Part shown: piece after piece, positions 3,796-39,620 of the stretch
How positions within the stretch are numbered: the first letter of the stretch is position 1
How the letters are laid out: each line of letters begins with the position of its first letter
Origin: a virus
Lineage: Duplodnaviria > Heunggongvirae > Uroviricota > Caudoviricetes
DNA length: 40,622 nt
Strand: one strand, 5' to 3'
Virus record (IMG/VR): IMGVR_UViG_2534682002_000024
The notes under the pieces: model-generated
Databases searched by the model: none
The model's input: only the letters and a program-made list of their open reading frames with translations
Told to the model about the DNA's origin: nothing
Made by a program: the position numbers and the translations under genes

Positions 3796-5835
3796 TTATT
3801 CTGTTACCGCTTTTTTCACTTCCACCACAATGCTGTCAATCAGCACCGGGTAAGTTGCATTTTTGGTGATATCCGTTACGCGGAGTTTGTCCACCGGGAA
3901 AGTTCCTACTGGTGACTGCGTCAGGGTAAACGCGGCACCATCCTGACCATCAATAACCGGAATAACCTGAAGGCTGTTATTTCCTGCAAAACGGAAGGCC
4001 AGCGTATGCCATTCATTATCAAATGCACCAAAGGTTCCCAGTTTCTGGTTATTTGTTGCCACTTTTGCATTGTGGTACATCACATTCAGGTCTTTTGCGT
4101 CTGTCTGGATGTAGAACGATGCCAGCAGATTATTCCCTGCATCCCCTGTCAGGGTGACACCCTGCGGCAGAGAGGAAACCGGCCAGTAAAGCGCCATGAC
4201 ATACTGGTTTGCCACCAGGTCGCCAGGTACTTTAAAACGACAACTGATTAAACCACCATTTTTCAGCAGTTCAGCACCAGTACCGGCATCATGATCCAGA
4301 TACCAGGATGATTTACCTGTTTCCTTGGTCAGTTTCATTGCCTTACCACCTGTGCCTCCTGCATCACTGATAATTTCAGCTTTACCGCCAGCCGGCTCCC
4401 AGCCCTGGGCTTTCAGATTTCCTTCTGACTCACTGACACGGTAAGACAGCAGTGTTGTGGTTACTGCTTCAGTTTCTGAAGGTGACGGCACTGGTGCTTC
4501 AGTTTCAGAAGATGGAACATCGGCTTTTACTGTGGTTCGCCCTGCATGAGTCAGAACAGCCGTGGCCAGACGGTCAGAAATAATACCCCGGCGCGCCCAG
4601 GCACTGAAATGGCTGGCCCGGTCCGCAGATGTCCAGGTAGCGGCACTGTTACGCCACGTTGAGCCGTAATAACCAATGGATTCAATATCCGGGTCTTCTG
4701 CCGGATTGTTGGTGGGTACATTCACGCCATTTTCATCTGTCATTAATGGAACGAAATGAATGTTTTTATCTGTTTTGTTTTTGTAGCCGCCATAGATTGC
4801 CTGGTATGCTGGTTCATTTTTCTGTTTCCAGAAATACGTGGTATCGCCACAAATCCACGGAACGCCAGCAGCACTGCCACCGGTACACTGTTCCGCCTGT
4901 TCAGCCAGGTCTGCGCGGAATTTTTCCACCATCGCCAGAAACAGCGCAGAATGCTCCGTCGGCTTCGCATCAATATCAAACTCGCCCTGCATCCACACCA
5001 CAGCAAGCAGGCGGTTTTTCGGGTTCTTCGCCAGTGCCGCTTTTGTCCGGCTGATTAAGTCCTTATACAGCGGCTTATCCACACCCCAGCGGGCTGAGTC
5101 CTCTGAAGCACCCGTGCTGTCACTGTACGTGCCGTCAGCACCCGCCGTGAATGCAGAACCACCACGGCAGCAGGGAACCAGCAGAATCCCCGCATCTGCC
5201 GGAATAAACGGCAGCAGTTTTTTGGCAATGTGAAGCCCCTGACCCACGGTGCCATATTGCCCTTTAGCCACATCCGCTTTCGGGTGATTTTTTCCACTCA
5301 TATCCTGCACATCATGCAGACAGTGGTCGGCCAGAATGATGTCGTTATACTGACAGGCTTTACCTCCCGGCGTGACTGTACTGCGACGGGCTAACTGCAT
5401 AATACGCGGTTCGGGGCGGTCATATGTCTCCGGCAGTGGCAGACCTTCACCGTAAGCCATACCGTTTGACTGACCAGCAAGAACCACCACGTAATACCAG
5501 GAAGGGGAGCTGGAAGCAGTTTCATTTCCTGACGGACGGGTATGTGTTTCAGCATTATCCCAGTCTGACGGTTCAGCAGTACCGGCAACATCAGCACTTA
5601 ACGGAATGACCGCACCAATACCCGCTCCGGTAATTTCCACACTCGGATCACCGGATACTGGCCTTACCCACAGGCAATCCCGTGTATTAAAACTGATGAG
5701 ACAGTCAGCAAATGTCATTCCTCCTTTTGTTTCGGCCGGAGGAAAGGGAGCCTCAAGAAATGCCGCTGTACCACCGGAAACTTTAACAGTAAAGTTTCCG
5801 GGCATTGATGATAGTTGAACCCATTTGGACGTCAT
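3796..5835 (-). CDS. 679-aa SGNH/SASA-type carbohydrate esterase with lectin-like beta-sandwich C-terminal domain (cargo gene)
   Basis: VVVLAGQSNGMAYGEG carries the GQSN motif typical of sialate O-acetylesterase-like (SASA/DUF303) SGNH hydrolases. No N-terminal signal peptide. An S/T/P-rich linker precedes a C-terminal region that looks like a concanavalin/laminin-G type domain. It occupies the gin to com-mom interval. Confidence 0.6.
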   Translation of the reverse strand: MTSKWVQLSSMPGNFTVKVSGGTAAFLEAPFPPAETKGGMTFADCLISFNTRDCLWVRPVSGDPSVEITGAGIGAVIPLSADVAGTAEPSDWDNAETHTRPSGNETASSSPSWYYVVVLAGQSNGMAYGEGLPLPETYDRPEPRIMQLARRSTVTPGGKACQYNDIILADHCLHDVQDMSGKNHPKADVAKGQYGTVGQGLHIAKKLLPFIPADAGILLVPCCRGGSAFTAGADGTYSDSTGASEDSARWGVDKPLYKDLISRTKAALAKNPKNRLLAVVWMQGEFDIDAKPTEHSALFLAMVEKFRADLAEQAEQCTGGSAAGVPWICGDTTYFWKQKNEPAYQAIYGGYKNKTDKNIHFVPLMTDENGVNVPTNNPAEDPDIESIGYYGSTWRNSAATWTSADRASHFSAWARRGIISDRLATAVLTHAGRTTVKADVPSSETEAPVPSPSETEAVTTTLLSYRVSESEGNLKAQGWEPAGGKAEIISDAGGTGGKAMKLTKETGKSSWYLDHDAGTGAELLKNGGLISCRFKVPGDLVANQYVMALYWPVSSLPQGVTLTGDAGNNLLASFYIQTDAKDLNVMYHNAKVATNNQKLGTFGAFDNEWHTLAFRFAGNNSLQVIPVIDGQDGAAFTLTQSPVGTFPVDKLRVTDITKNATYPVLIDSIVVEVKKAVTE

Positions 5836-5934: not shown

Positions 5935-6495
5935 TTATTTTTCCGAAACGCTCGCAGGATAATAACGATAAAGGGTTGAAAGACCGATATCAAAAATAAG
6001 TGCCACCTGTCTTCGACTGACACCCCCGGCCAGTAAACGCCCGACCTGCTCGTATTGTTCCTGCGTGAGACGGCGGGGTCTGCCGCCGGTTCGTCCCCTT
6101 TCACGGGCAGCTGCAAGACCAGCCCGTGTCCGTTCGACAATTAATTCACGCTCCATTTCTGCCAGCGCACCCATTATGTGAAAAAAGAAGCGCCCCATGG
6201 GGGTTGACGTATCAATGTTGTCAGTAAGACTACGAAAATTTATCCCCTGTTGCTGTAATTCATCTGTCAGCGCAACAAGGTGGCGCATACTGCGCCCCAG
6301 CCTGTCCAGTTTCCAGACCATCAGCGTGTCACCGGGTTTTAGTTTCTTCAGTGCCCGCTTCAGTCCCGGCCGCTGTGTCGTTTTACCACTCATTTTGTCT
6401 TCAAAAATCTGCTCACATCCTGCACATTCCAGCGCATTTCTTTGTAAACCGGTGTTCTGGTCATTTGTTGATACGCGTATATAGCCAATCAGCAT
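5935..6495 (-). CDS. gin: Gin/Pin/Hin-family serine DNA invertase
   Basis: MLIGYIRVSTNDQNTGLQRNALECAGCEQIFEDK...WKLDRLGRSMRHL is nearly identical in pattern to Gin/Pin. 186 aa. Transcribed away from the adjacent invertible segment. Confidence 0.9.
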   Translation of the reverse strand: MLIGYIRVSTNDQNTGLQRNALECAGCEQIFEDKMSGKTTQRPGLKRALKKLKPGDTLMVWKLDRLGRSMRHLVALTDELQQQGINFRSLTDNIDTSTPMGRFFFHIMGALAEMERELIVERTRAGLAAARERGRTGGRPRRLTQEQYEQVGRLLAGGVSRRQVALIFDIGLSTLYRYYPASVSEK

Positions 6496-6552
6496 GTATT
6501 TACCTTCCTTAAAAAGAGGTGGAAAAGCCTTTTAAAGTAGATATACGGCATC

Positions 6553-6578
6553 CCTGAAACCTCGGTTTACGGGATACG
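6553..6578. repeat. gix-like crossover site (gin-proximal)
   Basis: GAAACCTCGGTTTACGGGA resembles the Mu gix core (AAACCGAGGTTT) and is an inverted copy of the site at 7976-8001; 16 nt are identical. Confidence 0.7.
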
Positions 6579-6929
6579 GTAAACAGGGCCGCGAATGCCC
6601 TGCCATCAAACGGTACGGCTGTTGCAGCAAGCAGGCTGGCAAATGCCCGCAGAATCAATGGTGTCGCCTTTGACGGCACGCAGGATATAAACATTACGTC
6701 AGGAATGCCGGAATCAACGGCCAATCAGCGTTATGTTACAGGGGTAAGACTGGGAGCGCAGGCATTAAGCGGCGGACTGGAATATAATTACTCCCTGTCA
6801 TCAGGAAATGTGATTACCGGTTTTAAGACTGACGGAGACTGGGAAATGCGTGGTGGTGATGACCGTGTTTATTACAGACAGATACAATATTGTATTAATG
6901 GGCATTGGGTATCCGCTGCAAGTATTTAA
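6558..6929 (+). CDS. Silent alternative tail-fiber C-terminal cassette (S'v-like), no start codon of its own
   Basis: The frame opens directly at the gix site and reads NLGLRDTVNRAANALP...INITSGMPESTANQRY..., closely parallel to S residues NLGLRETVNKAADALP...INITSGMTQSTADGRY..., then diverges at the tip. The track lists only the ATG-started 3' part (6705..6929). Confidence 0.7.
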   Translation, partial: NLGLRDTVNRAANALPSNGTAVAASRLANARRINGVAFDGTQDINITSGMPESTANQRYVTGVRLGAQALSGGLEYNYSLSSGNVITGFKTDGDWEMRGGDDRVYYRQIQYCINGHWVSAASI

Positions 6930-7050
6930 TTAACGGGGGCATAGCACACAGCAGCCAGCATCTGAAATATGCGTTATTTCAGACAAGCATTGCCTGTATA
7001 TGGCGATAGTATTATTCCTGTTTTTATCATTGATTTACATGGTGATGTTT

Positions 7051-7572
7051 ATGCAACTGATTAATGTCAAACGATATTACCCGAAAGACAAACCCTATGG
7101 TGAGGATGTTCAGTATTTCCAGAGTGAGGACGGAAGGGATTTTTATGAATCTATCCCGCTTTTTACAAAGAAATACAAACTCTGTATTTCGCCTGTAACG
7201 GGTATTATCTGCTCTGTTGCTGAAGATGTCTCTGCTTTATATCCGGCAGGTTTTACTGTTGTTGAAGTGGACGAACTGCCGGAAGGTGTGAATATTGACG
7301 GTAACTGGCAGTTTTCTGATGGCCTGATATCAAAGGTGCCGGTAAACTGGAAGACGGTTGCTGAAAAGCGTCGCTCATCGCTGCTCCAGGAAGCCAACGA
7401 AACCGTGGATGACTGGAAAACAGAATTAAAACTGGACATGATTAGCGATGAAAATAAATTACAGCTGACGCGCTGGATGGCGTATATCCGACAGCTTAAA
7501 GAAATGCACTTTAATGATATTGCCAGTGAGGGGCATTACCAGGCGATTCCCTGGCCGGAAAAACCGGAATAA
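7051..7572 (+). CDS. Tail fiber assembly protein (Tfa/U-type chaperone)
   Basis: C-terminus ...TRWMAYIRQLKEMHFNDIASEGHYQAIPWPEKPE matches the conserved Tfa C-terminal pattern. Start placed at ATG 7051 (MQLINVKRYY) rather than the track start at 7000. Confidence 0.75.
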   Translation: MQLINVKRYYPKDKPYGEDVQYFQSEDGRDFYESIPLFTKKYKLCISPVTGIICSVAEDVSALYPAGFTVVEVDELPEGVNIDGNWQFSDGLISKVPVNWKTVAEKRRSSLLQEANETVDDWKTELKLDMISDENKLQLTRWMAYIRQLKEMHFNDIASEGHYQAIPWPEKPE

Positions 7573-7606
7573 TTCAGAGGGTGCATTCAGCACCCTTTTC
7601 TGTGGT

Positions 7607-8518
7607 TTACACTGAACTTACCGTTCTCCAGGTATTATTAATATAAATCTGAACCGGGCGATAATAGACCCCACCGATATTGTCCGCAGACCGGGAGCCG
7701 GTTTCCTGCACGTTAATACCGGAAAGCATACAACCGGAAGGTGCGCTGTAATTCCATGACATTTCATTGCCTCCGGGTGAATGATAGCTCTGTGCTCCAA
7801 GCTGAACATTCTGTACATACCGGCCATCTGCGGTTGACTGCGTCATTCCTGACGTGATGTTGATATCCAGCGTTCCGTCAAAAGGAACACCATTAATATT
7901 TCTTGGGGTGGCGAGTCTGTTTGCTGCCACGGCGGTTCCAGCCGATGGCAGGGCATCAGCAGCCTTATTTACCGTTTCCCGTAAACCGAGGTTATCGATA
8001 AAGGTTCCTTTGTCCTGGATATCCGCGCCATTCTGGTCCCTGCGCAGGTAACGGTTATCACCTTCGCTCCTGCTGTAAACATCCAGATTATTACGGGCGG
8101 TTTCCGCATTCTCCAGGTCGGCAAGGTTCTGATCCTTCGCCAGGGCATTAACGTCAGCGGGACCAAGACTGTTTTTTGTGGCAAGCGTCCCCAGACCAAG
8201 ATAACCACGGGCCAGACGCTGGGCTTCCGCACCGGCATCAGCAATTTCTTTCAGGTTGTTTTTCCGGGAAAAGGCATTCGCAGCGATAATGGCTTTAATG
8301 GACAGCGTAAGCTGGTTTAACTGCGCCTTATCCGGCTGAATACTGGCTTCAGCCAGAATATTCAGCAGTTCGGCCTGGAGAATATTCAGCCAGTCCTGAC
8401 CAATCCAGCTGATACCTTTTTGTCCGTCACCTTCGGTAAACCAGGTGGTGGTATTACTCTGCGCCGGAGCCAGTTCAGGCATATTCGCCACGCCGGAATT
8501 ATTATCAACATGGAACAT
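7607..8518 (-). CDS. Tail fiber protein S (constant N-terminal part plus currently expressed variable C-terminus)
   Basis: Follows baseplate genes and contains the gix site at about residue 175. Start placed at ATG 8518, which overlaps the upstream stop as TAATG. Confidence 0.75.
   Translation of the reverse strand: MFHVDNNSGVANMPELAPAQSNTTTWFTEGDGQKGISWIGQDWLNILQAELLNILAEASIQPDKAQLNQLTLSIKAIIAANAFSRKNNLKEIADAGAEAQRLARGYLGLGTLATKNSLGPADVNALAKDQNLADLENAETARNNLDVYSRSEGDNRYLRRDQNGADIQDKGTFIDNLGLRETVNKAADALPSAGTAVAANRLATPRNINGVPFDGTLDINITSGMTQSTADGRYVQNVQLGAQSYHSPGGNEMSWNYSAPSGCMLSGINVQETGSRSADNIGGVYYRPVQIYINNTWRTVSSV
7976..8001. repeat. gix-like crossover site inside S
   Basis: CCCGTAAACCGAGGTTATCGATAA closely resembles Mu gix (TTCCTGTAAACCGAGGTTTTGGATAA, from memory) and is inverted relative to the site at 6553-6578. 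Confidence 0.7.
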
Positions 8519-9078
8519 TAAATATTCTCCTCTTTGTGACTGTTTGCATACACGTAAATAAACGTCTGCCATGCAGGCTTATAACGGTTCAGAATACATT
8601 CCAGCGCACCACCCTCATAAATACGCAGCGGGGTGAGAATATCATCCAGCACATTCATATTCCGGTAGCCGGTTTCACTGTTTATCGTGACAATACTGAC
8701 CCACTGTGAATCCGGTGATGGCTGAATATCTATTTCATAACCAAACTCTGCCGCAAACCGGATATAAAATTCACGGTTAAGAGAGGGTTTCATCCGGTAT
8801 TTATTCCCTGCATAACGCTGACGTTCCTGAATGGTTGCGCCGGTCATATCACATTCCGGTAACCCCAGATAACGCTCCCAGTCTTCCAGCAGCAGACGGG
8901 ATGAATCAGGAAAACGTTCTGCCAGCATCTGGTTACCGGTCCAGGAAACACGCTCCGTGGAATGACTGAGGCCCAGGCACAAAGCCGCAAGAACGGATGA
9001 CGGCCGCTTATCCCATGCCAGCCCGTCAGGCAGCAACTGCAACAGGGCGCGCTGATGCGGGGTCAGGGTTACAGCCAT
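8518..9078 (-). CDS. Mu gp48-like tail/baseplate protein (P2 gpI analogue)
   Basis: Position between baseplate J and tail fiber; 186 aa; translationally coupled to neighbours. Confidence 0.6.
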   Translation of the reverse strand: MAVTLTPHQRALLQLLPDGLAWDKRPSSVLAALCLGLSHSTERVSWTGNQMLAERFPDSSRLLLEDWERYLGLPECDMTGATIQERQRYAGNKYRMKPSLNREFYIRFAAEFGYEIDIQPSPDSQWVSIVTINSETGYRNMNVLDDILTPLRIYEGGALECILNRYKPAWQTFIYVYANSHKEENI

Positions 9079-34642: not shown

Positions 34643-35173
34643 TTATTTATTCAGTCCGGCGTCCTGTTCAAAAGGCTCGACATAAAAACTTTCAGCGCCT
34701 TTATTCACCTTAATACCGGCAATCCCTTTCACCGCATCCGGCTCCGCCAGGACCGCTTCCTTGTTCACTTCCTCTTTCGTGCGGATAAAACGCTCAAGGC
34801 CCATACGGCGCAGCATTTCAATCACACCTTCCACATCACGACTGACGCTGCATGATGGATTCCCCAGTCGCCATGACACCGTTCCGGTGGTCAGATTGGC
34901 TGTTTTGGTTTTGCCGCCGTTCGTCAGCTCATCGCGGTTGGTTTTGCACCAGTCCTGAATCCCCTTAAAAAGCACTTTGATTTCTTTTTTAAGGTTTTCA
35001 ATTTGCGGCGTATAACGGGCGGTGATTTCTGCCACTTCATCATTCATCGCCGTTTCCAGCCGCAGCGCCTCTCGCTGAATATCGCCCAGGGTGCGGATAT
35101 CGCGGCTGACTTCTTCGCGGGTCTGCGGTGCAGCCTCGGCTGCGGCCTTTAATTTTGTAACACGTTTAGCCAT
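34643..35173 (-). CDS. gam: Gam-like host-nuclease inhibitor / DNA-end binding protein
   Basis: 176-aa charged helical protein at the Mu gam position; size matches Mu Gam (about 174 aa). Confidence 0.7.
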   Translation of the reverse strand: MAKRVTKLKAAAEAAPQTREEVSRDIRTLGDIQREALRLETAMNDEVAEITARYTPQIENLKKEIKVLFKGIQDWCKTNRDELTNGGKTKTANLTTGTVSWRLGNPSCSVSRDVEGVIEMLRRMGLERFIRTKEEVNKEAVLAEPDAVKGIAGIKVNKGAESFYVEPFEQDAGLNK

Positions 35174-35184
35174 TTTGTTTTTCC

Positions 35185-35478
35185 TTATTGCAGTGTGCCT
35201 GATGCTTTATGCACGCGGTGGCGTTTAATGATGGCATCCGCCCCAAAAGCCTGTACAGATGCCTGAAATTCCGCTGAGAGAAACTGAATAATTACAGGAC
35301 TGTGATACTGGAGAATGCTTGCATAAACGTCACAGAGTGACGTCGGCCTGTTATCCGTATCACGTTCTGTTTTCACATCCACTCCAATCTTTTCATGCAC
35401 TTCAACACTGTCATTGCCTGCCGGTTTTTCGTCATGCGAAACATGCTCAAATTCAAAAATAACGCGTACTTTGCTCAT
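35185..35478 (-). CDS. Hypothetical small early protein, paralog A
   Basis: Start placed at internal ATG 35478 (MSKVRVIFEFEH). N-terminus parallels the adjacent gene. Confidence 0.45.
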   Translation of the reverse strand: MSKVRVIFEFEHVSHDEKPAGNDSVEVHEKIGVDVKTERDTDNRPTSLCDVYASILQYHSPVIIQFLSAEFQASVQAFGADAIIKRHRVHKASGTLQ

Positions 35479-35482
35479 GGAA

Positions 35483-35755
35483 TTACCCCTGCTGATTAAA
35501 TTCATTACCTTTAATAACCCCGGAACTCATGTTCATATCTTTCATGAGCGCTCTGGCTTTCATTGCCACAAGTTCAGCAAAGTCTCTGCTTTCCGCGAGC
35601 ATAACCACTCCAAAAATCATGGCGGGTCCATCACCTTTCTGCTTTATCCCGGTTGAACGTATGTCCAGACTTACCCCCATGCGCACTGTTCCATCAGCGT
35701 TTTTATGGATAACGTGCTCCTTGTATTCGAAAATAATGCGTACGACTTTACTCAT
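35483..35755 (-). CDS. Hypothetical small early protein, paralog B
   Basis: MSKVVRIIFEYKEH...; the DNA around both start codons is also similar. Confidence 0.45.
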   Translation of the reverse strand: MSKVVRIIFEYKEHVIHKNADGTVRMGVSLDIRSTGIKQKGDGPAMIFGVVMLAESRDFAELVAMKARALMKDMNMSSGVIKGNEFNQQG

Positions 35756-36033
35756 CCTCTGGTCCTCGTTCTGTTTGGATAACTGACCCGGCGTCTGACC
35801 TCACGGCAGAACCGAATCATGGCATTAAAGGCTTCTTCCTCCGTCACCGCTTCCGGTATCCCCGGAACCAGTAACTGCTCCTGTTCATCACGTCCATGAC
35901 GCGCCATAACCTCAATCACATGCCGTACCGTGGCAGGCTTTCCGGCAACTATCGGCAATGCACCTTCCGGCAGGACGTAACCAAACTCAATAAGACCACT
36001 CGACCACGCCCATGCAATGAGATTTTTTTTCAC
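35752..36033 (-). CDS. Hypothetical early protein
   Basis: 93-aa ORF, translationally coupled. Confidence 0.4.
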   Translation of the reverse strand: MKKNLIAWAWSSGLIEFGYVLPEGALPIVAGKPATVRHVIEVMARHGRDEQEQLLVPGIPEAVTEEEAFNAMIRFCREVRRRVSYPNRTRTRG

Positions 36034-36034
36034 C

Positions 36035-36301
36035 TCACACCTCCCAGTAAACCGTGCAGCCGCTGATGCGGGTGGCCTTCACACGGCGGCGCAGGCCGTT
36101 GGTCTGTATGGTGATTTCAATTTCACCGGTTCCCTGCACGTTGCCTACCGGCGGCGTGGTTTTCAGTGCAAAACGTTGTGGGTAGCGCTTACTGCGTTCC
36201 AGTACCGCACCGGCAAGTTCGGTCAGACGGCGCGCGCTGTTCAGGGAGTCGAATAAATTCATTTTGTTACCGCAGGATTGCATATTCATATAACACCTCA
36301 T
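36035..36301 (-). CDS. Hypothetical early protein
   Basis: 88-aa ORF; true start possibly an internal ATG (MNLFDSLNSARRL). Confidence 0.4.
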   Translation of the reverse strand: MRCYMNMQSCGNKMNLFDSLNSARRLTELAGAVLERSKRYPQRFALKTTPPVGNVQGTGEIEITIQTNGLRRRVKATRISGCTVYWEV

Positions 36302-36529
36302 TTAGCTGACTTGTTTCGCACCAACAGAACGGCATATTCCGCTGTAAACTTCTGTCGCACCTTCGCGATCAAGTCCGGCAGATATCACCATTCGTGTGCG
36401 GTCATTAAATTCAAAAAGTAAATCGCCACATTCTTTATTTTCGGCCAGTGAAATCACCTTCACGTTATCGAAATTAACCAGGTAAAAGCGTCCGTAAATA
36501 TCAGGAATATAAAATACCGCCATAATCAC
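36302..36529 (-). CDS. Small protein at the Mu kil position
   Basis: 75 aa, immediately downstream of B; Mu Kil is about 74 aa. Assignment is positional only. Confidence 0.4.
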   Translation of the reverse strand: MIMAVFYIPDIYGRFYLVNFDNVKVISLAENKECGDLLFEFNDRTRMVISAGLDREGATEVYSGICRSVGAKQVS

Positions 36530-37458
36530 ACCTGTGAGAGTAATTCAGGGTTGGTATAAACCTCTTTAAAGGCCGCATTAATATGTTTTTCTGTCAGCGC
36601 CGCACCTTCACCGCTGGCGGTGAGCCACGCCTGGTTAAGCGTATGTGTCAGAACGCGTAACGCTCCCGGCTTTTCAGCGATAGCCTGCATGACGGCCAGC
36701 TCGGCCTCACCACTGATACCCCATGCCCTGGCAATGGCCAGCACATCCGCCTTTTTGGCCTTGCGAAGTTGTTTTGTACGGGCAAGACGGCTGAACAGGC
36801 GCGATAAATCATCAAAGGCGCGGCGTCCACCTTTAAACAATCCGCGCGGGTTACCAATAAGCACCATCCCGATCCCCGTGGCGTCCTGAATTGCCCGGAG
36901 TTGCTCCAGACCGTCAATACCAAGATGATCCGCCTCATCCACAATCACCAGTCCACGCGTTCCCATCAGGCGACGGCGGATGGCGCGGGATAATGCCCCT
37001 TTGTTCGCGCGGGTGTAATCAATCCCCAGCGCATCGGCCAGCTCCAGCAGACACTCCGTGACGCTGGAGTGCGCGGGTGACAGGGTGATCATCCAGGTGT
37101 TTGGTTGCTCCTGGCAGTAATTACGGGCAGTGGCCGTTTTACCCACACCCGGTACGCCCACAATAACGTTAATACAGCCCATCAGACGAACCGCCTGAAA
37201 CAGTGCGCGCAGCTCCTGGACTGTCTGCGTTTCCACAAACTGCGGCGGTTCCGGCAGTGCGCTTTGTTTATTCCAGTTCTCATACCAGGAACGCAGGGAA
37301 GCAGCCACAGCAGCGTTATCGCCTTTATATTTTCCCTTACGGAAAGCCGATAATGTGCCGTCGGAAATTCCCGCCTCTCTGGCGATGGCATACTGCGTCA
37401 GTACGCCGCCATCAATAAGTTCATCAATGGTCTTGATTACATCGTTAATATCAGTCAT
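36526..37458 (-). CDS. B: DNA transposition protein B (AAA+ ATPase)
   Basis: 310 aa with Walker A GVPGVGKT; N-terminal HTH-like region; directly downstream of the transposase. Mu B is 312 aa. Confidence 0.85.
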   Translation of the reverse strand: MTDINDVIKTIDELIDGGVLTQYAIAREAGISDGTLSAFRKGKYKGDNAAVAASLRSWYENWNKQSALPEPPQFVETQTVQELRALFQAVRLMGCINVIVGVPGVGKTATARNYCQEQPNTWMITLSPAHSSVTECLLELADALGIDYTRANKGALSRAIRRRLMGTRGLVIVDEADHLGIDGLEQLRAIQDATGIGMVLIGNPRGLFKGGRRAFDDLSRLFSRLARTKQLRKAKKADVLAIARAWGISGEAELAVMQAIAEKPGALRVLTHTLNQAWLTASGEGAALTEKHINAAFKEVYTNPELLSQV

Positions 37459-37529: not shown

Positions 37530-39620
37530 TCAGGCCAGCGGGTCATTTTCTTTTAATTTCGCTTCCAGCAACTGCAATCCCCGCTGGAAATTACGCTCGT
37601 ATTCTTCATCAGGTTCATCGTCAGCGACCGGTTGCTGAACGATCACCGCATTACCCACAGGGCGATAGATGTTTTCCAGCCATGGCTCCTGCTGCTTGTG
37701 CTCCAGCACGTTGACCACCTCATCCTCGGCATCACGGATTTTTTCCTCTGCGCGTTTACGCATGCCTTTAAGGCGTTGCTGCTGTTTGTAGTATTCCGCG
37801 CTGACCGGGAAGGCTTCGCGTTTATTGCCGCCCCATACCGCCTCGCAAATCACGCTGCCATCCAGGCGACGTACGGTAATTCGTTCGGCATCATGAATGT
37901 CATAGCTGATAAGCACCTTGCGGCCATGCTCATCACGCAGCTCGGGAGCGTAGTAAATATTATTCAGCCAGCGTATTTCACAGCGTCTTACAGGGCGTTC
38001 CACCATCGGCCGGAACATATCCCGCAGCTCAACATCGGACAGCCATTCAATTTCCGTGTCCTCTTCCGCCAGGCGTTTTTTTCTGAACTCCGCCGGGCTG
38101 TAATGCTTGCCGTTCGGTTTTATGGGTAATTCATCGTGCGGCCGGTTGTTGTACCACTCAACACCATCACGAATGGCATCAATCAGTTCAGCCCAGGACG
38201 GTAAATCACGCATCGCTGACTGCTGCCGGGCGTTCAGCCGTTTGCCCTGTTGCAGGGCACTGAATGCCGAGCGTAAATCGCGGTTGGTTTTACGTAACGT
38301 CTCGCGATCTGCACCTTTCCCGAAATAGGTGCGGTATTTACGGGCTATGCGCATCGGTAATGTGCGGTTAAGCCGTTCGATAATGCCCCGTCCCTGCGGG
38401 TTACCGGCAATCCCTGTCGGGTGATTAATCCCCAGTCGCGGCAGAATCCCCACAACTTCCTTATCCAGGATGTCGGCGGTTTCCCCGGAACCGTTATCCG
38501 AGTAATACAGAAACGGTTTGCCGTGATTACGAATACCGTGCTGTATGGCACCGGCTACGGCGAAAACATTTTCAGCCAGGTCAAGGCTCCAGCCCACCAC
38601 AAAGCGCGTGCCACCGTCGATAACAAAGGTCACTTCCGGTGCAAATGGCCGCCCGTGAACCGGGTGCCTGCATTTCAGCTTCATGCCGTGACCGTCACCA
38701 ATCCAGACATAATTCACCGGCATTTTTGACCAGTCGCGGCGCGTGAATCCCTCAAGCTGGCGATATTCACTGCCGGTCACCCGGCCTTTTTGTTTCACCA
38801 CTTCCGGCAGTTTCTTCATTGCGCGGCGAATGGTGTCATAAGACGGCATGATATCGAGCATATAAGGCTCATCAGCGTGCCGGTGCTGCCATTCAGCGAC
38901 AAAATCCTCGTAGGCCTCGGTCATTGGTCGGCCGTTTGACTGGCGATACTGCGCCAGAAATTCGGGCAGCCAGTTAATATCTTCGGCTTTTATTTCCTGG
39001 CGCTTACCCGGTGCCAGCAAAAGCAGGCGTTCGGCGGCGTTCTGCGCCTTGTTAAAGGCTGCAATCCAGCGTTTCAGCGTGATTTCACTCAACGCACGGC
39101 TGTTTCCCTTTTTGGCGTTCGCCGTCTCAACCATTGCCACAATGCGCTCGTCCAGCTGCGAACGTGCCAGGTTGTCAACGATAAACCGGATAGCTTTCGC
39201 ACAGCTGAAACCGGGTTGTTGCGCGACTTTCATCACTTCGCTGACGATCGCGATTCGTGCATCAGCCACCTGGCGCTGGTTTTCAGTCAGGGCATTAAGG
39301 CGTTCAACCATCAGTTGTGGTGATCCGCGATATGCCTCCACCGCATCAACCACGGCAGGCGAGCGTCTGGCCTTTGTCACCACCGGAGCCGGTGATTCAT
39401 CGGCTTTTTGCGTCATCAGTTGCAGGGCGTAGCGTTCACGTAATGCCTGCTGCGTCACTTCAGGTAAACAGTCGATACTGTATTCAGTTGCTTTAGAGCC
39501 TGAGCGACGACGGGAACAACAGCTTTTCCCTTGTACGTAACGTTGTAATGCCTGGCGAATACCTTTTGTTGTAGCAGGCATTCCGGGCGCGCCAATCAGT
39601 TCTTTTGCAATGACATACAT
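37530..39620 (-). CDS. A: Mu-type DDE transposase A
   Basis: 696 aa following ner; N-terminal DNA-binding region, central RNase H-like region, C-terminal charged domain. Size matches MuA (663 aa). Confidence 0.85.
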   Translation of the reverse strand: MYVIAKELIGAPGMPATTKGIRQALQRYVQGKSCCSRRRSGSKATEYSIDCLPEVTQQALRERYALQLMTQKADESPAPVVTKARRSPAVVDAVEAYRGSPQLMVERLNALTENQRQVADARIAIVSEVMKVAQQPGFSCAKAIRFIVDNLARSQLDERIVAMVETANAKKGNSRALSEITLKRWIAAFNKAQNAAERLLLLAPGKRQEIKAEDINWLPEFLAQYRQSNGRPMTEAYEDFVAEWQHRHADEPYMLDIMPSYDTIRRAMKKLPEVVKQKGRVTGSEYRQLEGFTRRDWSKMPVNYVWIGDGHGMKLKCRHPVHGRPFAPEVTFVIDGGTRFVVGWSLDLAENVFAVAGAIQHGIRNHGKPFLYYSDNGSGETADILDKEVVGILPRLGINHPTGIAGNPQGRGIIERLNRTLPMRIARKYRTYFGKGADRETLRKTNRDLRSAFSALQQGKRLNARQQSAMRDLPSWAELIDAIRDGVEWYNNRPHDELPIKPNGKHYSPAEFRKKRLAEEDTEIEWLSDVELRDMFRPMVERPVRRCEIRWLNNIYYAPELRDEHGRKVLISYDIHDAERITVRRLDGSVICEAVWGGNKREAFPVSAEYYKQQQRLKGMRKRAEEKIRDAEDEVVNVLEHKQQEPWLENIYRPVGNAVIVQQPVADDEPDEEYERNFQRGLQLLEAKLKENDPLA

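Follow-up and report, generated by a model that had tools for sequence, protein, structure and literature searches.

Two adjacent genes with a common N-terminus

The window analyzed here, i.e., the whole stretch of 40,622 nucleotides (nt) filed as IMG/VR record IMGVR_UViG_2534682002_000024 (Caudoviricetes), is a Mu-like prophage of Escherichia coli. Between its kil-like gene and its gam gene it carries two adjacent small open reading frames (ORFs), hereafter ORF A and ORF B (Table 1), which are real, co-transcribed early genes of this prophage and new, divergent members of a partly known family, that of Mu E6/Gnarl2 and D108 gp7 (PHROGs 10252, 2230, and 4107). Positions 35100-35850 are 100% identical to the AUSMDU00014361 chromosome, and RefSeq annotates the same two coding sequences in the 100% identical E. 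coli chromosome. Databases label both products as hypothetical proteins (PHROGs 4107 and 2230). Of 5426 complete E. coli genomes, 232 (~4%) carry the pair, at lower identity, many of them being O157:H7. From its published description, Sp18 of O157 Sakai is a Mu-like prophage to which the present one can be likened (PMC2669165).

All genes around the pair are encoded on the minus strand, in the order MuA-MuB-75aa-Kil-93aa-A-B-Gam, where 75aa and 93aa are genes named by the length of their product in amino acids (aa). This order parallels the semi-essential early region of phage Mu. The Gam protein shows 57% identity to that of Mu, and the Kil-like protein matched Mu Kil weakly by BLASTP (E = 1e-4). 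By synteny with Mu, ORF A and ORF B lie between MuB/kil and gam, which bears out their early character as proposed in the initial annotation of this DNA. Also, in length (85-97 aa), early strand and kil-gam position they fit the family as it is found in Mu, D108, PhiR68_1, Mu_3F6, and YpM_5. The start of ORF A overlaps the stop codon of the 93-aa gene (ATGA) and is preceded by a Shine-Dalgarno sequence, GAGGA, 7 nt ahead of the ATG. The ATG of ORF B lies 4 nt past the ORF A stop codon, with AGGGG 7 nt ahead of it. Promoter and terminator scans detected nothing on the coding strand of the locus, and Rfam gave no match. This tight spacing, the individual Shine-Dalgarno sites, and the absence of promoters and terminators on the coding strand indicate that the two genes are cistrons inside the early operon.

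The two products have an N-terminus in common, and both the coordinates and the N-termini quoted in the initial annotation were exact. BLASTP aligned residues 1-17 of ORF A with residues 1-15 of ORF B (12/17 identities, E = 7e-4). The Smith-Waterman score of 45 was equalled in 31 of 20000 shuffles (probability about 0.0016), and comparison of the two family profiles gave E = 2.8e-6. The 5′ ends also agree as DNA in 25 of 28 aligned bases, with one 3-nt indel, a score attained by 2 of 2000 codon shuffles. The similar DNA previously noted around the starts is thus limited to the first 28-31 coding bases, and the sequences ahead of the two ATGs show no likeness. The longest perfect nucleotide match between the genes is 7 nt. 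In the conserved N-terminal segment, called the box below, the genes differ at 3 synonymous sites and have Ser2 and an Arg in common, two residues without counterpart in Mu-type phages. Pairwise alignment therefore upheld the N-terminal match and yielded nothing past residue 17, which agrees with the divergence described at the outset. Recent detectable duplication and a frameshift origin were both considered and are excluded by the chance-level protein, DNA and cross-frame comparison past that residue.

It could be argued that such a short similarity is a chance resemblance of two unrelated small ORFs. At 21.6 bits the match is unexceptional among pairs of the 57 ORFs of the window, several chance pairs scoring as high, so that the pairwise score alone comes close to the chance-level similarity of a few residues that would speak against paralogy. 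However, the genes are adjacent and the match begins at residue 1 in each, the shuffle probability and the profile E-value are low, neither family has a segment more conserved than the box, and links exist at the level of the bodies, as described below. Taken together, these points place the match above chance, and a coincidence appears extremely improbable.

Table 1. Genes and features of the kil-gam locus and its surroundings (positions in the window).
Feature	Position	Strand	Match or remark
ORF A, 90 aa, starts MSKVVRIIFEYKEH	35483-35755	minus	PHROG 4107, function unknown
ORF B, 97 aa, starts MSKVRVIFEFEH, allele type B1	35185-35478	minus	PHROG 2230, function unknown
ORF A box, codons 1-13, MSKVVRIIFEYKE, predicted first beta-strand	35717-35755	minus	nearly invariant in family A, including P0063
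ORF B box, codons 1-11, MSKVRVIFEFE	35446-35478	minus	hardly varies within family B; the B1/B2 swap has its 5′ crossover here
ORF A most variable stretch, codons 14-37, predicted beta-hairpin tip	35645-35716	minus	non-synonymous diversity (pN) 0.12-0.21
ORF B most variable stretch, codons 14-37, predicted beta-hairpin tip	35368-35439	minus	pN 0.14-0.22
Conserved 66-nt segment ahead of first cassette	35756-35821	minus	intergenic in relatives
Gam (Mu Gam family), conserved downstream flank of the cassette locus	34643-35173	minus	Pfam PF07352, E = 1.5e-41
93-aa gene, variable neighbour module outside the paralogue pair	35752-36033	minus	PHROG 1518
Kil-like gene, upstream anchor of the variable interval	36035-36301	minus	PHROG 2679, E = 7.8e-46
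75-aa gene	36302-36529	minus	
MuB	36526-37458	minus	
MuA	37530-39620	minus	

Relationship to the gene-7 proteins of Mu and D108

The box follows the pattern M-[AS]-K-V-(x)-[IV]-I-[FI]-E-[FIY] and is the most conserved segment in all four subfamilies, with an identity of 0.87-0.99 against 0.38-0.81 for the next stretch. In ORF A, pN is 0.02-0.07 in the box and the helix, compared with the values of Table 1 for codons 14-37, and the mean pairwise identity is 0.95 in the box versus 0.81 in the variable stretch. The corresponding identities in ORF B are 0.92 and 0.75. Synonymous diversity in the box codons is ordinary and non-synonymous diversity is low, which indicates a constraint at the protein level; the substitutions observed are conservative (I/V, F/Y). 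The box was also considered as a nucleotide-level element, and this candidate was set aside as its synonymous diversity is ordinary. Members of the family thus consist of the constant box (predicted first beta-strand), the hypervariable stretch (predicted hairpin tip), and a body that is mostly helical by prediction.

The same arrangement is found in gp7 of phage Mu (also named E6 or Mup07). Like ORF A and ORF B, this is a protein of similar size (about 87-97 aa) encoded by an early gene between kil and gam, and its invariant box, MAKVIIEIKN, has the same pattern as the MSKV(V)R[VI]IFE[FY] of our two proteins and is likewise followed by a variable stretch (residues 11-28). In contrast, the body of Mu gp7 (87 aa) is very distant in sequence from those of ORF A and ORF B, and Mu-type phages carry one gene-7 copy where this prophage carries two.

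The relationship of ORF B to gp7 of phage D108 (ACV50266.1), itself a member of PHROG 2230 (E = 4.5e-40), is more direct. BLASTP detected 27% identity over 82 aa for the window allele (E = 8e-7) and 34% over 83 aa for another allele class, B2 (E = 1e-10). A third variant occupies the gene-7 slot of PhiR68_1, Mu_3F6, and Yersinia phage vB_YpM_5. The gene-7 proteins of these phages and of D108 are full-length homologues of ORF B (27-34%, ~82 aa, PHROG 2230) with the same box and hypervariable stretch, but unlike ORF B they are single-copy, 89 aa long, and start with MAKV instead of MSKV. PHROG 2230 was also matched by 21 of 21 Mu gp7-type proteins (best E = 5.6e-5) and by 5 of 22 ORF A members (best E = 0.0065, residues 5-79).

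Pairwise comparison of ORF A with D108 gp7-type proteins revealed no detectable similarity (E = 0.29), a relationship appearing at the profile level only (z = 4.0). Narrow-profile hhalign comparisons with the Mu gp7 family were not significant for ORF A (E = 0.026) or ORF B (E = 0.086), and tests restricted to the bodies were null with a first, narrower B/D108 profile. A scan of IMG/VR for MAK-type boxes then provided further D108-type variants and a bridging protein of 85 aa, L123, whose context is Mu-like (ner, kil, a gp9-like gene, gemA, mor); the body signal appeared only once these sequences had joined the profiles. With its N-terminus removed, L123 scored z = 6.6 with Mu gp7 and z = 7.0 with D108 gp7 (0/5000 shuffles as high in both cases), z = 7.2 with B2 (1/5000), and z = 3.8 with ORF A of the window (23/5000).

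In body-only profile tests, in which the N-terminus was removed and 100 column shuffles served as the null, the A body matched the combined Mu, D108, and L123 types with a score of 29.5 (E = 1.8e-5, 55 columns, z = 9.6, 0/100 shuffles), and the B body with a score of 32.2 (E = 6e-6, z = 11.7, 0/100 shuffles). Reversed-column and unrelated-family controls scored 8-11 (8-9 for A). The Mu-type body compared with the D108/L123 types plus B gave z = 4.1, and the full A family against the superfamily reached a probability of 94% (E = 1.4e-7, 72 columns).

Several observations weigh against one family along the whole length. The direct comparison of ORF A with ORF B past residues 15-17 is at chance level in protein shuffles, in DNA, and in all nine cross-frame translations. 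The A body matches the Mu type weakly (z = 4.0, 1/100 shuffles as high), and the B body does not match the Mu (Gnarl2) type significantly when compared with it directly (z = -1.1). An unrelated family reached an hhalign probability of 93% with the gp7 family from the box alone, its body being unrelated. The AlphaFold2 (AF2) models of A and B have low predicted local distance difference test scores (pLDDT, 64 and 66, respectively); structure prediction gave both a long beta-hairpin at the start, strand 1 being the box, followed by a topology that differs between the two, and fold searches with these weak models found no structural neighbours. In the ORF A model the strand spans residues 3-18, at low confidence. 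Finally, gp8 and gp9 lie between gp7 and gam in Mu, whereas the pair described here stands directly before gam, so that the loci are not strictly syntenic.

The unrelated family consists of proteins of 71-75 aa that start with MAKVI[LIF]EFD, contain an NG.KW motif, and occur in non-Mu IMG/VR contigs (e.g., L110, L113, L116, L119, L121). Since its box alone gives hhalign probabilities above 90% between unrelated bodies, an N-terminal match is by itself insufficient for paralogy, and the family membership of ORF A rests on the body-only tests. Such a family, together with the chance-level A-B body comparison, the AT-richness of the box and crossovers that two independent comparisons place 30-33 nt into the gene (see below), could also be explained if the bodies were unrelated and the first ~10 codons were kept for a nucleotide reason, as an AT-rich translation-initiation region or a patch of homology for recombination. 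We regard this as very unlikely. Both bodies gave high body-only scores with flat reversed and unrelated controls, L123 bridges them, and the box shows ordinary synonymous diversity, low non-synonymous diversity and conservative substitutions; also, a longest perfect A-B match of 7 nt makes for poor recombination homology. On the basis of these profile comparisons, A, B, D108 gp7, and Mu gp7 probably belong together over their full length as one family, in which A and B stand on different, old branches. ORF B is of the D108-gp7 type, and ORF A appears to be a narrow, E. coli-restricted branch leaning to the Mu type.

This arrangement bears on the origin of the pair. The initial annotation proposed a local duplication followed by diversification. 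Read as a recent event, this would be a tandem duplication in situ with very fast divergence of all but the N-terminus. The genes are indeed next to each other, with the same orientation and similar lengths, both have a raised ratio of non-synonymous to synonymous substitution rates (dN/dS), some relatives have one copy, and the boxes have in common the lineage-specific Ser2 and Arg. However, the two copies are not each other's closest relatives, B2 scoring 42 bits with D108 gp7 and 27 bits with ORF A; the bodies lean to different subfamilies; no DNA or cross-frame likeness extends past the first 31 nt; and the 3 synonymous differences between the boxes argue against recent gene conversion. 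The part of the proposal that stands is that these are homologous, diversified tandem genes, and a recent duplication seems rather unlikely. Either the split between A and B is old, or the second copy was acquired as an already diverged cassette.

The distribution of the pair is narrow. An exhaustive search of 1.84 billion representatives with the family A profile recovered its own family, one 56%-identical relative (P0063), whose gene sits in the same A-B-Gam context, and spurious repetitive proteins. Among 185,579 species-representative genomes, we detected neither a relative of ORF B nor an MSK-type box. In IMG/VR and metagenome contigs, the MSK-type box was restricted to these prophages, where it heads families A and B only, and no third body type with this box was found. 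A tblastn search of 50,697 phage records located the two ORFs only in two Shiga toxin (Stx) phages bearing an inserted Mu-like element.

Cassette exchange and allele diversity

Phages Mu and D108 share 97% identity as far as nt 33 of gene 7; all similarity is then lost until the stop codon, past which the identity is 96%. ORF B of the window compared with that of strain CI5 is 100% identical over nt 1-30, 55-75% identical up to ~nt 275, and >=93% identical onward through gam and beyond; the body of ORF B is thus a sharply bounded divergent allele with its 5′ boundary just past the box. The layout is the same in Mu/D108 and in the two ORF B classes, a constant box being followed by a replaced body. 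These classes, B1 (35185-35478 of the window) and B2 (L001 3086-3379, strain CI5), are ~60% identical in protein. Their synonymous divergence is raised too. This suggests that B1 and B2 are old alleles kept by recombination or balancing selection. ORF A also falls into allele classes, at about 100%, 80%, and 56% identity.

In a census of related loci, the upstream module and the alleles of the two genes were found to reassort, A and B alleles occurring in all combinations. Copy number in related prophages, which the initial annotation had proposed to examine, varies: ~38 loci carry both A and B, and two or three carry B alone (e.g., CI5, L067). Upstream of the pair, relatives have the 93-aa gene, a 139-aa gene, or nothing. 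The 66-nt segment ahead of ORF A is 78% identical to the segment directly ahead of ORF B in CI5, a strain without ORF A, and in other prophages, too, the similarity breaks at 35821.

Further observations concern the modules next to the pair. The last ~22 codons of the 93-aa gene run through the 66-nt segment that is intergenic in relatives, and L123, a distant Mu-like element, has a homologue of this gene (reverse strand, 2697-2951) adjoining its gp7-family gene. PHROG 1518, to which it belongs, carries the name “host nuclease inhibitor”; this is a label for which we found no support. The 139-aa gene of relatives (L005 2947-3366; L047 3290-3709) starts like gp8/E7 of Mu, which is also 139 aa long (L003 5062-5481), and other Mu early-region genes may therefore also move as cassettes. 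Rearranged derivatives of the pair exist as well. P0036 is a deletion fusion of A (1-49) and B (80-97) joined at a common “FG”, and several frameshifted B variants continue into the start region of gam (derivatives including P0036, P0056, P0061, and P0062).

The dN/dS ratio, calculated from distinct alleles out of IMG/VR and genome loci, was 0.39 for ORF A and 0.42 for ORF B, compared with 0.10 for MuB, 0.09 for Gam, and 0.11 for Kil. Both genes are under purifying selection overall, but at the amino-acid level they evolve several times faster than the genes next to them.

Elsewhere in the prophage, a Mom-family protein (Pfam PF25680, E = 2.6e-77) is encoded at the right end (1675-2412, minus), as in Mu. 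Between mom and a Gin-like invertase lies a gene (3796-5835, minus) for a 679-aa protein with a SASA carbohydrate-esterase domain and DUF6645, a surface-sugar esterase that may be relevant to polysaccharide modification or adsorption. The region 5935-8572 looks like an invertible host-range segment, with a resolvase/invertase at 5935-6495 and a tail-fibre assembly gene at 7000-7572 (plus). Within it, the product of a 74-aa plus-strand ORF (6705-6929) matches, at 40% identity, the C-terminus of the 321-aa product of a minus-strand gene (7607-8572; E = 7e-10).

Putative function and significance

No function for ORF A or ORF B emerged from the literature on Sp18 or on the semi-essential early region of Mu. 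Within the family, an experimental phenotype has been reported for Mu E6/Mup07 alone (NP_050611.1, Mu 4784..5047), which one group has named gnarl2 in two papers (Nat Commun 2025 16:7828, PMC12373910; preprint 10.1101/2023.04.06.535777). When gnarl2 was expressed in the wild E. coli strains ECOR1 and ECOR22, O-antigen bands shifted down and T5 infection rose 10^5-6-fold (PMC12373910). The same authors argue that proteins of this kind, with 40-90 aa, have no enzymatic activity of their own and that their probable targets are the O-antigen enzymes of the host; Gnarl3, which is unrelated, binds GalU (PMC12373910). Gnarl1 and Gnarl3, from the same screen, come from lytic phages, unlike the ORF A and ORF B of this prophage, and serve here as a working model only, that of small non-enzymatic phage accessory proteins altering the O-antigen, by analogy of mechanism and not as members of the family.

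Small proteins of this kind are also familiar from Pseudomonas. There, Mu-like phages encode small early host-modifying proteins, such as Tip of D3112 and Aqs1 of DMS3. These are short, encoded after the transposase genes of transposable phages, and bind a host protein, although their hosts and targets are different. The inhibitor-type role at which the initial annotation hinted is plausible only by analogy with Mu gp7 (Gnarl2), a small and non-enzymatic protein.

For the fold, host binding, target and phenotype of ORF A and ORF B, we infer the following scheme. The two products would be made early, from the Pe transcript, and, being too small for enzymes, would act by binding host proteins. 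The box may provide a common structural or docking strand, the stretch of residues 14-37 and the body would set target specificity, and whole bodies would be swapped between phages via recombination resolved within the box on one side and within the 3′ flank on the other, both of them conserved. The target area would be, as for Gnarl2, the biosynthesis of O-antigen and lipopolysaccharide (LPS), and allele diversity may track the diversity of host surfaces. The tandem pair, the allele series, the presence or absence of ORF A and the raised dN/dS fit an arms-race effector.

As far as the target is concerned, O-antigen/LPS biosynthesis is the leading single candidate, proposed by analogy, although less likely than not to be the right one. 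Two points count against this extension. Affinity purification-mass spectrometry of Gnarl2, a protein whose direct target is given as unknown, showed no clear pattern, and its authors call the name tentative (PMC12373910). Also, the transfer from Gnarl2 to ORF A and ORF B spans a large sequence distance and a replaced body. It is quite conceivable, if short of an even chance, that the family assignment is right and that the proteins act on some other host process of a kind typical for the Mu semi-essential early region (nucleases or DNA repair, cell division, defence systems, or a different route to superinfection exclusion). The neighbours (Kil, Gam, and a PHROG labelled “host nuclease inhibitor”) would suit such a role, the bodies differ from that of Gnarl2, and fast evolution with presence/absence variation would suit any arms-race gene. 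However, neither ORF A nor ORF B had a match in Pfam, NCBIfam, PADLOC, or PDB sequences, which cover catalogued defence, anti-defence, and inhibitor families, and the sole experimentally tested member of the family has an O-antigen phenotype (PMC12373910).

A bolder proposal, which we consider a long shot, is that the kil-gam “gene-7” locus is a dedicated diversification site, the constant N-terminal strand being both a structural or docking anchor and the homology patch for swapping or stacking bodies. The stacked A and B of this prophage type, which occurs in many O157:H7 genomes, would then have separate targets among the surface-polysaccharide enzymes of the host, each disabling its own in a manner matched to serotype. 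If true, this would amount to an enzyme-free seroconversion toolkit, with an allele series mirroring the O-antigen diversity of E. coli.

Apart from this proposal, the present data carry a lesson of method, as an N-terminal match alone is no ground for calling two genes paralogues. The link to Mu E6/Gnarl2 gives hypothetical genes present in ~4% of complete E. coli genomes a testable lead, and a family known from one tested protein now spans at least four body types under a constant N-terminal box. With its sharp boundaries, its allele series (B1/B2 and several A types) and its variable copy number, this locus constitutes a tractable natural system, suited to asking what sets the specificity of small non-enzymatic effectors and whether the diversity of host surfaces drives their turnover.

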